Source: Nannocystis sp. RBIL2 (lineage in GTDB: Bacteria > Myxococcota_A > Polyangia > Nannocystales > Nannocystaceae). Taken from it: a stretch of DNA of 64,000 nucleotides. Location: positions 780,311-844,310 of the forward strand of contig NZ_JAPNJW010000001.1 of NCBI RefSeq assembly GCF_026626745.1. Reading direction: 5' to 3'. The position numbers and the translations under genes were made by a program. Shown piece after piece: positions 1 to 931 of this stretch (position 1 is the first letter of the stretch; every line of letters starts with the position of its first letter). Below the pieces are notes generated by a model. That model had not been told where the DNA came from and searched no databases. It saw only the letters and a list, made by a program, of their open reading frames with translations.

Positions 1-182
1 TGTTCCCCTCCCCGTGGTTCCTCGCGCTGTTCGTCCTGCCGCAGGGGATGGTCCTTTCGCGCACGTACGACGCGCGTCGCCATCGCTGGCCGGCGCTGGC
101 CACGTTCGTCGTCAACACCATGCTCGTCGGCCTCGCCGCGGCCGCCTATCTGGGCCTGCGAGCGTCCTACGCCCAGGCCTGA
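1..182 (+). CDS. small 2-TM membrane protein, copy 1 of 3 (5'-truncated by window edge)
   Basis: Reading frame identical to the two downstream copies (…FPSPWFLALFVLPQGMVLSRTYDARRHRWPALATFVVNTMLVGLAAAAYLGLRASYAQA*). Strong GC3 bias; stop TGA near 180-182. Confidence 0.6.
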   Translation, partial: FPSPWFLALFVLPQGMVLSRTYDARRHRWPALATFVVNTMLVGLAAAAYLGLRASYAQA

Positions 183-235
183 CGCGCGGCTCACTTGTCG
201 AGGCGGAACATCCTCAACCGCGAGGCGAACGAAGC

Positions 236-505
236 ATGACGGCAGGCAGCGACCGCTGGATCAACGGACTCGACTACCACGTCCTGTTCGTCCTCTTCGC
301 GCTCGTCCCGATCGCCTTTTGGGTGTTCCCCTCCCCGTGGTTCCTCGCGCTGTTCGTCATACCGCAGGTGCTGGTCCTCTCACGCACGTACGACGAGCGT
401 CGCCATCGTCGGCGCGCGGTTGCCACGGTCGTCGTCAACACGGTGCTGGTCGGCCTCGCCGCGGCCGTCTATCTCGGCCTGCGAGCGTCCTACGCCCAGG
501 CCTGA
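236..505 (+). CDS. small 2-TM membrane protein, copy 2 of 3 (89 aa)
   Basis: Internal Met (MTAGSDRW…) of track ORF 14..505. Two hydrophobic helices separated by an R-rich loop (TYDERRHRRRA); high GC3. Preceded by a conserved ccgcgaggcgaacgaagc-ATG leader shared with copy 3. Confidence 0.65.
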   Translation: MTAGSDRWINGLDYHVLFVLFALVPIAFWVFPSPWFLALFVIPQVLVLSRTYDERRHRRRAVATVVVNTVLVGLAAAVYLGLRASYAQA

Positions 506-654
506 CGCGCGGCTCACTTGTTGAGGCGGAGCACCCCCGACTGGCTCGCGGGGCGCAGCTTGGCCAGCAGCGGCTCGACCTCGCGGGTCAGCGGGTGTCG
601 ACGTCCCAGCCGCAGTCTATTTCTCGTACTCTTTCATCCGCGAGACGAAGAAGC

Positions 655-924
655 ATGACGGCAGGCTGCGACCGCTGGATCAACGGGCTCGACTACCACG
701 TCCTGTTCGTCCTCTTCATGCTCGTCCCGATCGCCTTTTGGGTGTTCCCCTCCCCATGGTTCCTCGCGCTGTTCGTCATGCCGCAGGGGATGGTCCTCAC
801 GCGCACGTACGACGCGCGTCGCCATCGTCGGCGCGCGATCGCCAGGTTCCTCGTCAACACGGTGCTCGTCGGCCTCGCCGCCGCCGTCTATCTCGGCCTG
901 CGAGCGTCCCACGCCCAGGCCTGA
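655..924 (+). CDS. small 2-TM membrane protein, copy 3 of 3 (89 aa)
   Basis: Internal Met of track ORF 319..924 (MTAGCDRWINGLDYHVLFVLFMLVPIAFWVF…). About 85% aa identity to copy 2; ATG at 655 checked in sequence. Confidence 0.65.
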   Translation: MTAGCDRWINGLDYHVLFVLFMLVPIAFWVFPSPWFLALFVMPQGMVLTRTYDARRHRRRAIARFLVNTVLVGLAAAVYLGLRASHAQA

Positions 925-931
925 CGCGGGC

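Follow-up and report, generated by a model that had tools for sequence, protein, structure and literature searches.

Tandem duplication and amplification in bacteria starts with illegitimate or short-homology joining and proceeds by unequal crossing-over, a process reportedly covered in the reviews of Reams and Roth. Orphan immunity modules are said to occur at contact-dependent inhibition (CDI)/Rhs loci and at loci of type VI secretion systems (T6SS). Behind toxins of type VII secretion systems (T7SS), non-identical immunity paralogues stand in tandem as strings of esaG, tsaI or tipC genes (Garrett et al. 2022, PMC9484751). Toxins associated with extracellular contractile injection systems (eCIS) bear DUF4157 as a marker domain (PMC8213781; PMC11297309), and many predicted eCIS toxins puzzlingly have no known immunity genes (PMC8213781). 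The locus described here lies at the left end of a 64,000-nucleotide stretch of DNA from Nannocystis sp. RBIL2 (the window) and consists of three tandem copies of a gene for an 89-amino-acid (aa) membrane protein, facing a convergent gene for a DUF4388 protein. As in the T7SS immunity arrays, several divergent copies of one small gene follow each other head to tail, on the strand of an effector-type gene and immediately behind it.

The explanation preferred here has four parts: the array arose by tandem duplication, its copies are maintained, its product is a membrane protein, and this protein is a cognate partner of the protein encoded upstream. Taken jointly, these parts are given slightly better than an even chance of being correct, and they are of very different strength individually.

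Structure and origin of the array

The features of the array and its neighbour are listed below.

1..182, plus strand: copy A of the small membrane-protein gene, codons 31-89 with the stop at 180-182, truncated by the window start
183..235, no strand: spacer 1, 53 bp, composite junction
236..505, plus strand: copy B, intact, 89 codons (P0002, OV203_40745)
506..654, no strand: spacer 2, 149 bp, read as a full-length duplication junction
655..924, plus strand: copy C, intact, 89 codons (P0001, OV203_40740), abutting the real DUF4388 gene
925-931: gap of 7 bp between copy C and the DUF4388 gene
932..2221, minus strand: DUF4388/PatA_N gene, intact, 429 aa, convergent neighbour

A repeat search of the window found direct repeats at 1-218, 324-541 and 743-960 with 81-89% identity. 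The same search aligned copies B and C over a block of 279 nt (231-509 and 650-928) at 93% identity, and 511-591 with 929-1009 over 81 nt at 95% identity. The repeat is real and far beyond chance, and it takes the form of head-to-tail direct repeats of one unit, as in a tandem segmental duplication. The copies start 323 bp apart from A to B and 419 bp apart from B to C, so that the 419-bp period given in a preliminary description of this DNA applies to the second interval and not to the first. Tandem Repeats Finder missed the array in the window because of the 96-bp difference in length between the two spacers.

The proteins encoded by copies A, B and C are identical to the NCBI records OV203_40750, OV203_40745 and OV203_40740 of Nannocystis sp. 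ILAH1. Copy A is complete in the public record, where it has 89 aa (P0006, OV203_40750). The tandem triplication of a small membrane-protein gene proposed in the preliminary description is thus borne out by three direct copies, of which B and C are intact 89-codon open reading frames (ORFs) and A is full-length in the public record. The suggestion that the array might be longer did not hold. The locus tag adjoining copy A is that of OV203_40755 (P0009), a unique gene of 507 aa, and the array therefore has exactly three copies. On the contig of a relative the protein encoded upstream has this same ILAH1 protein, OV203_40755, as its closest homologue.

Both spacers consist of a DUF4388 3' tail followed by an upstream-gene 3' tail, while both flanking genes are intact (the upstream one as annotated, P0009). 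Spacer 1 contains a 23-bp remnant of the DUF4388 3' end at 191-213, identical to 932-954 at 22 of 23 positions, whose complement reads MFRLDK*. It is followed at 214-235 by 22 bp left over from the upstream gene's 3' end (..REANE.), which include a GAGG ribosome-binding-like motif. In spacer 2, positions 514-591 are a 78-bp copy of the DUF4388 stop and last 25 codons with 74 of 78 positions identical; it reads LTREVEPLLAKLRPASQSGVLRLNK and the native DUF4388 tail reads LSREVEPLLAKLRPASQSGMFRLNK. Positions 592-654 are a decayed 63-bp copy from the gene that precedes the whole array, covering its last ~21 codons. This copy reads SAGVDVPAAVYFSYSFIRETKKH, the C-terminus of OV203_40755 being AAGVGGASVAVYFLYSFLREANEE, and carries two indels relative to the native sequence in two relatives, L002 and L003, described below. 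The tail of the minus-strand gene 932-2221 that had been noticed in the spacers is therefore present in both, and these remnants derive from the final 23-78 bp of that gene. The duplicated unit had also been said to span a gene boundary. It does extend into the convergent DUF4388 gene, and it crosses the boundary of the upstream gene as well, which had been overlooked. A joint of this kind is exactly that predicted for a tandem duplication with ends inside both neighbours. At the 591/592 joint the repeat search and the junction comparison found neither long homology nor a mobile element.

The left flank of the ILAH1 array was reconstructed from NCBI protein records together with L003 and L002. 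A scan of genome contigs for relatives gave N. punicea only, with no representative of N. pusilla, and a metagenome scan with the subfamily alignment gave two loci. N. punicea (L001) has a single copy, which lies 9 bp from the DUF4388 orthologue and follows a beta-helix gene that is unrelated to the upstream gene here. The metagenomic Nannocystis contig L002, whose DUF4388 gene is 97% identical to that of the window, has two copies, separated by an 80-bp spacer composed of ~56 bp of DUF4388 tail and ~19 bp of upstream tail. On L003 (GCA_024708845.1) the upstream gene, copies A, B and C and the DUF4388 gene lie on one molecule with the same short and long spacers. Copy number at the same locus is thus one in N. 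punicea, two in L002 and three in the window and in L003, and the small gene converges on the DUF4388 gene at a distance of 7-9 bp.

L003 is the public contig JAMXTI010011973.1. Its positions 1-28 read AGTGTACTTCGTTCAGTTACGTATTGCT and resemble an untrimmed nanopore adapter. The contig has ~6% indel-type differences from the window and its match ends after window position 2247. It has the appearance of a read that was submitted as a contig without correction and that may be chimeric. Since the match is lost past 2247 and the contig may be chimeric, L003 was rejected as evidence for anything outside the array.

Tandem repeats are generally prone to mis-assembly, and the window on its own would not exclude an expanded or mis-joined repeat, which the preliminary description had named as the case that would refute it. 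The ILAH1 strain is described as a subspecies of N. pusilla and was assembled with HGAP from PacBio Sequel reads (PMC10435759). An array of ~1.2 kb with copies that are 7-11% divergent is trivially spanned by such long reads, and neither collapse nor expansion would make copies diverge. The order of the genes and both spacer types recur on L003, an independent contig, a junction of the same kind is found in the two-copy array of L002, and NCBI annotates three distinct proteins. An assembly artefact is thus considered extremely improbable, and the array is taken as a true tandem duplication in what follows.

The duplication is not recent. Synonymous divergence (dS) between the copies is 0.09-0.19, approximately that of the DUF4388 gene between ILAH1 and N. 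punicea (0.10). A derived IPQVL signature, comprising three codon changes, is common to copy B of ILAH1 and copy 2 of L002, while other sites group the copies otherwise, the site patterns {A, Npun}, {C, Npun} and {L002_1, L002_2} being mutually incompatible. Because of this sharing of IPQVL against the grouping of the other sites, the alignments indicate that the duplication is old and that gene conversion and unequal crossing-over came after it.

The array arose as follows. The ancestral state is that seen in N. punicea, a single small gene converging on the DUF4388 gene with 7-9 bp between them. In the ILAH1 lineage a segment was duplicated in tandem that reached ~63 bp into the upstream gene's 3' end on the left and 78 bp into the DUF4388 3' end on the right. 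Spacer 2 has retained the full junction of the 419-bp unit. Spacer 1 and the 80-bp spacer of L002 would be shorter forms, produced by loss of non-coding DNA within the junction or by duplications of their own. Copy number would later have shifted by unequal crossing-over and patches would have been exchanged by gene conversion. A single duplication followed by deletions is indistinguishable from several independent duplications, given that the three junctions differ in both breakpoints. The duplication account as such is held with high confidence.

Maintenance of the copies and the junction remnants

The GC content at third codon positions (GC3) is 0.90 in copy A, 0.87 in copy B and 0.90 in copy C. 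At second codon positions (GC2) it is 0.44-0.46 in copies B and C, and 0.44-0.53 over the plus-strand coding frames. These values match the coding signature of a 72% GC genome and the plus frame is therefore taken as the coding frame. The ORFs 14..505 and 319..924 do exist, and since their extensions have a GC3 of only 0.51-0.56 they are fused artefacts, as had been supposed. A minus-strand ORF at 634-912, with a GC3 of 0.62, was rejected as a real gene.

The copies differ from one another by 7-11% in DNA sequence. The encoded proteins diverge by 13.5% between B and C, in agreement with the 10-15% estimated at first, and by 19% between A and B and between A and C, for which that estimate was too low. 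Among the copies and their orthologues the ratio of non-synonymous to synonymous substitution rates (dN/dS) is 0.4-0.8, compared with 0.10 for the neighbouring DUF4388 gene. Such values would also be expected if a duplication made by illegitimate recombination had simply persisted, with the extra copies (B, C or A) unselected and drifting to loss. For B versus C dN/dS is 0.76 (13 non-synonymous and 6 synonymous changes), which alone is statistically indistinguishable from neutrality, and amino-acid divergence is ~8x that of the neighbouring gene (dN 0.085 vs 0.010). Relatives manage with one or two copies. Stops are rare in 72% GC DNA, so intact frames by themselves are weak evidence of selection. 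Two positions conserved in the wider family, Y64 and E69, have been lost in all Nannocystis sequences, and this too speaks against tight constraint.

The pattern of insertions and deletions argues against drift. The three 270-bp copies contain no indels or stops, whereas the spacer-2 remnants of the same age carry ~3 indels per 149 bp and the two spacers have come to differ by 96 bp. A rough Poisson estimate gives a neutral expectation of around 10 indels for B and C together. The coding GC3 signature has been retained. Nine positions are conserved in 80% or more of the distant family members, and every copy has kept seven of them (M1, D13, H15, W35, P43, Q44 and N68). Many of the replacements between copies exchange one hydrophobic residue for another inside the membrane segments. 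A B-type paralogue is present in a second lineage and has thus survived a speciation-scale interval. Given that the copies are free of indels next to remnants of the same age, have an intact coding GC3 and keep the conserved residues, we conclude from these comparisons that they are maintained but weakly constrained. Neutral persistence is accordingly rated as rather unlikely.

All three copies would thus be kept as working genes. They lie on the same strand and directly behind the upstream gene, each has its own GAGG-type ribosome-binding motif with no terminator between the copies, and they are probably co-transcribed with the upstream gene.

The convergent neighbour is an intact gene. Its product matches DUF4388/PatA_N (PF14332) in Pfam at residues 76-220 with 49.8 bits against a cut-off of 25, and so belongs to that family. 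The gene has a GC3 of 0.98, and its N. punicea orthologue has the same length, with the dN/dS of 0.10 given above. The remnants of its tail in the spacers lie on the strand antisense to the DUF4388 mRNA, and the spacers are probably transcribed. Array transcripts would then carry 23-78 nt antisense to the 3' end of that mRNA and might regulate it in trans, the more so as the 78-bp copy matches the native tail at 95% identity and only 7 bp, with no terminator found there, separate the two convergent genes. This arrangement would, however, already supply antisense RNA by native convergent overlap. The lengths of the remnants vary widely across spacers and lineages (23, ~56 and 78 bp), they change like neutral DNA, and a structural or conservation signal is absent. 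A regulatory role of the captured tails is therefore considered very improbable.

The small membrane protein and its possible upstream partner

The hydropathy of the 89-aa protein shows three hydrophobic stretches at approximately 15-31, 34-47 and 62-80. An AlphaFold model of low confidence (predicted local distance difference test, pLDDT, 67; predicted template modelling score, pTM, 0.37), used for counting helices only, has helices at 3-11, 14-30, 34-53 and 55-88. The loop TRTYDARRHRRRA is strongly basic (RRHRRR) and for this reason probably cytoplasmic. Three transmembrane helices with the N-terminus inside are thus more likely, from hydropathy and the model, than the two assumed in the preliminary description. 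The product would be a small inner-membrane protein of about three helices with a basic cytoplasmic loop and conserved polar residues within the membrane.

Profile searches of Pfam, NCBIfam, PADLOC and the PDB gave no curated-family match above threshold for the small protein. The best Pfam score was to DUF2142, with 17.1 bits against a cut-off of 30.1, and came from copy B only. An exhaustive profile search among 1.8 billion proteins found ~20 divergent cluster representatives of the family at E <= 0.001, with 19 distant relatives of 78-116 aa at E values from 3e-8 to 9e-4. These share D13, H15, W35, P43, Q44 and N68, and the motifs of the family are D-x-H, W, PQG-x-[IV]-LTR, D and [Y]-x-x-x-N-E. 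By this comparison the small protein is a member of a real, widespread and undescribed family.

Some annotations around family members deserve mention in their own right. Both L002 copies (1309-1928) bear the Joint Genome Institute (JGI) label '4-hydroxybenzoate polyprenyltransferase', which was rejected as it is unsupported by Pfam or NCBIfam and the proteins have only 89 aa; the label is probably spurious and could propagate. On two unrelated metagenomic contigs, L012 (1152-1415) and L013 (3899-4261), a family member lies ~0.3-0.7 kb from a DoxX-family membrane protein. A flavin-dependent reductase is also nearby, a nitroreductase in L012 and Flavodoxin_2 in L013, and a nitroreductase stands at the edge of contig L011. 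These neighbours give a weak hint of a redox or quinone-related context for the wider family.

The gene upstream of the array provides the link to contractile injection systems. The upstream frame of L003 matches the Pfam family eCIS_core (PF13699/DUF4157) with 28.2 bits against a cut-off of 22, contains the HExxH-type motif HELTHTIQQ, and is thus counted as a member. Two homologues, P0010 and P0015, carry precomputed PF13699 assignments. The operon of P0015 includes Pvc16_N, AAA ATPase, tube, spike and gp25 genes, and P0011 adjoins a contractile injection system tube gene. Beyond this the upstream proteins share a C-terminal domain of ~500 aa with hydrophobic helices at approximately 220-245, 255-275 and 485-505. 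When the upstream protein was modelled with AlphaFold, confidence was confined to a beta-rich domain at residues ~30-200.

The small gene follows directly downstream on the same strand. The ATG of copy A overlaps the upstream stop (ATGA) in L003, and that of the first copy does likewise in L002. P0010 shares 57% identity with the L002 protein, and on its JGI contig of 3171 bp an 88-aa gene comes next, overlapping the P0010 gene by 4 bp. P0018, which belongs to the small family as a remote member (31%), has 88 aa and comes from a single JGI contig of 3171 bp. The gene pair thus appears to be conserved across a large distance (31% and 57% identity). Because of this apparent conservation, the small protein may tentatively be viewed as a membrane partner of the upstream protein, whether protective, immunity-like or cognate in some other way, although we regard this as a doubtful proposition. 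Amplification and diversification would then broaden or boost protection, as in tandem immunity-gene arrays.

Several findings weigh against a cognate role. The identity of P0018 with the gene after P0010 rests on length, source and contig size and not on DNA. P0009 as annotated, with the start MRPFIQRD, is without the eCIS_core part, and the DNA upstream of the array in ILAH1 lies outside the window. The C-terminal domain of the upstream protein has no match in Pfam, NCBIfam, PADLOC or PDB sequences and no toxin fold was identified in it; Foldseek against the PDB gave no match at E <= 0.001, with a poor AlphaFold model (pLDDT 54) as the query. In L005-L010 and L008, from three other lineages, homologues of the upstream family stand without a gene of the small family in their vicinity. 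No such upstream partner accompanies the small-family members of N. punicea, L011, L012 and L013. The two families therefore do not co-occur across their homologues in general; they are linked in the Nannocystis of the ILAH1 lineage and, as inferred above, in P0010/P0018. As a separate observation, the near-identical sequence of L003 has a frame matching eCIS_core just upstream of the position of the P0009 start, and P0009 may have been annotated with a start lying too far downstream, or its gene may be in two pieces.

The solitary contexts raise the possibility that the small protein has a housekeeping role in the membrane and no relation to the effector-like gene, with the adjacency accidental and the amplification at most changing dosage. 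An eCIS_core-family partner is missing in four of six independent family contexts, among them that of N. punicea, where the gene stands behind the beta-helix gene, and those of L012 and L013, where it is near DoxX-family membrane proteins and flavin reductases. The 4-bp ATGA overlap in two Nannocystis lineages is less readily explained in this manner, and the same arrangement inferred for a pair of proteins 31% and 57% identical to those here would be unlikely without a functional link. A housekeeping role is possible but is viewed with reserve.

A cognate role, the reading preferred here, can be extended further. The 89-aa family would be an unrecognised class of membrane immunity or neutralising proteins acting against a new membrane-inserting, DUF4157-marked effector domain that is delivered by or associated with eCIS, and the triplet would be a diversified repertoire changing by unequal crossing-over. 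In this full form the proposal is speculative and is judged unlikely.

Other features of the window and comparison with known systems

Two further regions of the window are of note. At 33437-33503 and 38842-38914 on the plus strand there are two tRNA-like sequences with Rfam scores of 51 and 44 bits; ARAGORN calls no tRNA in the window. Both share the flanking motifs ACGTGGGCGGGA ... CCGTCGGG and are AT-rich for this genome. Between them the GC content falls to 0.66, high-GC3 ORFs are few from ~33.4 to 45 kb, and a 403-aa minus-strand ORF (37630-38841) abuts the second tRNA-like sequence. The stretch may be an integrated element with tRNA-derived ends. At 24289-24559 there is a tandem repeat of three 90-bp units with 83% matches (Tandem Repeats Finder score 338), apparently between two high-GC3 ORFs.

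The array is useful in several respects. It is a textbook case of how a tandem duplication is built, with junction remnants of both neighbours and relatives having one, two and three copies. For annotation, it shows that fused ORFs and gene-tail fragments of this kind should not be called genes. The array also brings to light an unannotated family, made up of membrane proteins of ~80-95 aa that have invariant polar residues within the membrane, and this family is tied to DUF4157-marked contractile-injection proteins in at least one and probably two lineages. If this link is functional, the two genes would form a testable effector/protector pair.

When compared with known systems, the mechanism of the amplification is ordinary. 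As in other cases of duplication-amplification, there are head-to-tail repeats, a novel right-to-left junction, intact flanks, and later change of copy number together with gene conversion. The array differs from transient amplifications of identical copies in being old (dS 0.09-0.19) and stably diverged. The amplification is thus real but fairly ordinary.

The upstream family resembles the eCIS toxins with an N-terminal DUF4157 domain in having PF13699 and an HExxH-type motif and in having homologues within contractile-injection operons (Geller et al. 2021, PMC8213781; Danov et al. 2024, PMC11297309). It is unlike these toxins in that the ~500-aa C-terminal domain matches no toxin fold or Pfam family and P0009 starts past the eCIS_core part. 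Unlike at eCIS loci, no injection-system genes are visible in the window, the region upstream of the array being outside it.

The comparison with the immunity arrays is also mixed. In the upstream family most genes have no small gene behind them, members of the small family mostly stand alone outside this locus, and there are three copies only. The marker found here, DUF4157, belongs to contractile injection systems and not to the T7SS, T6SS or CDI systems. However, as in the T7SS immunity arrays, copy number varies among close relatives and there are signs of recombination between paralogues. The immunity protein TsaI of the T7SS, which counters a toxin acting on membranes, resembles the 89-aa protein in being itself small and membrane-bound (PMC9484751).

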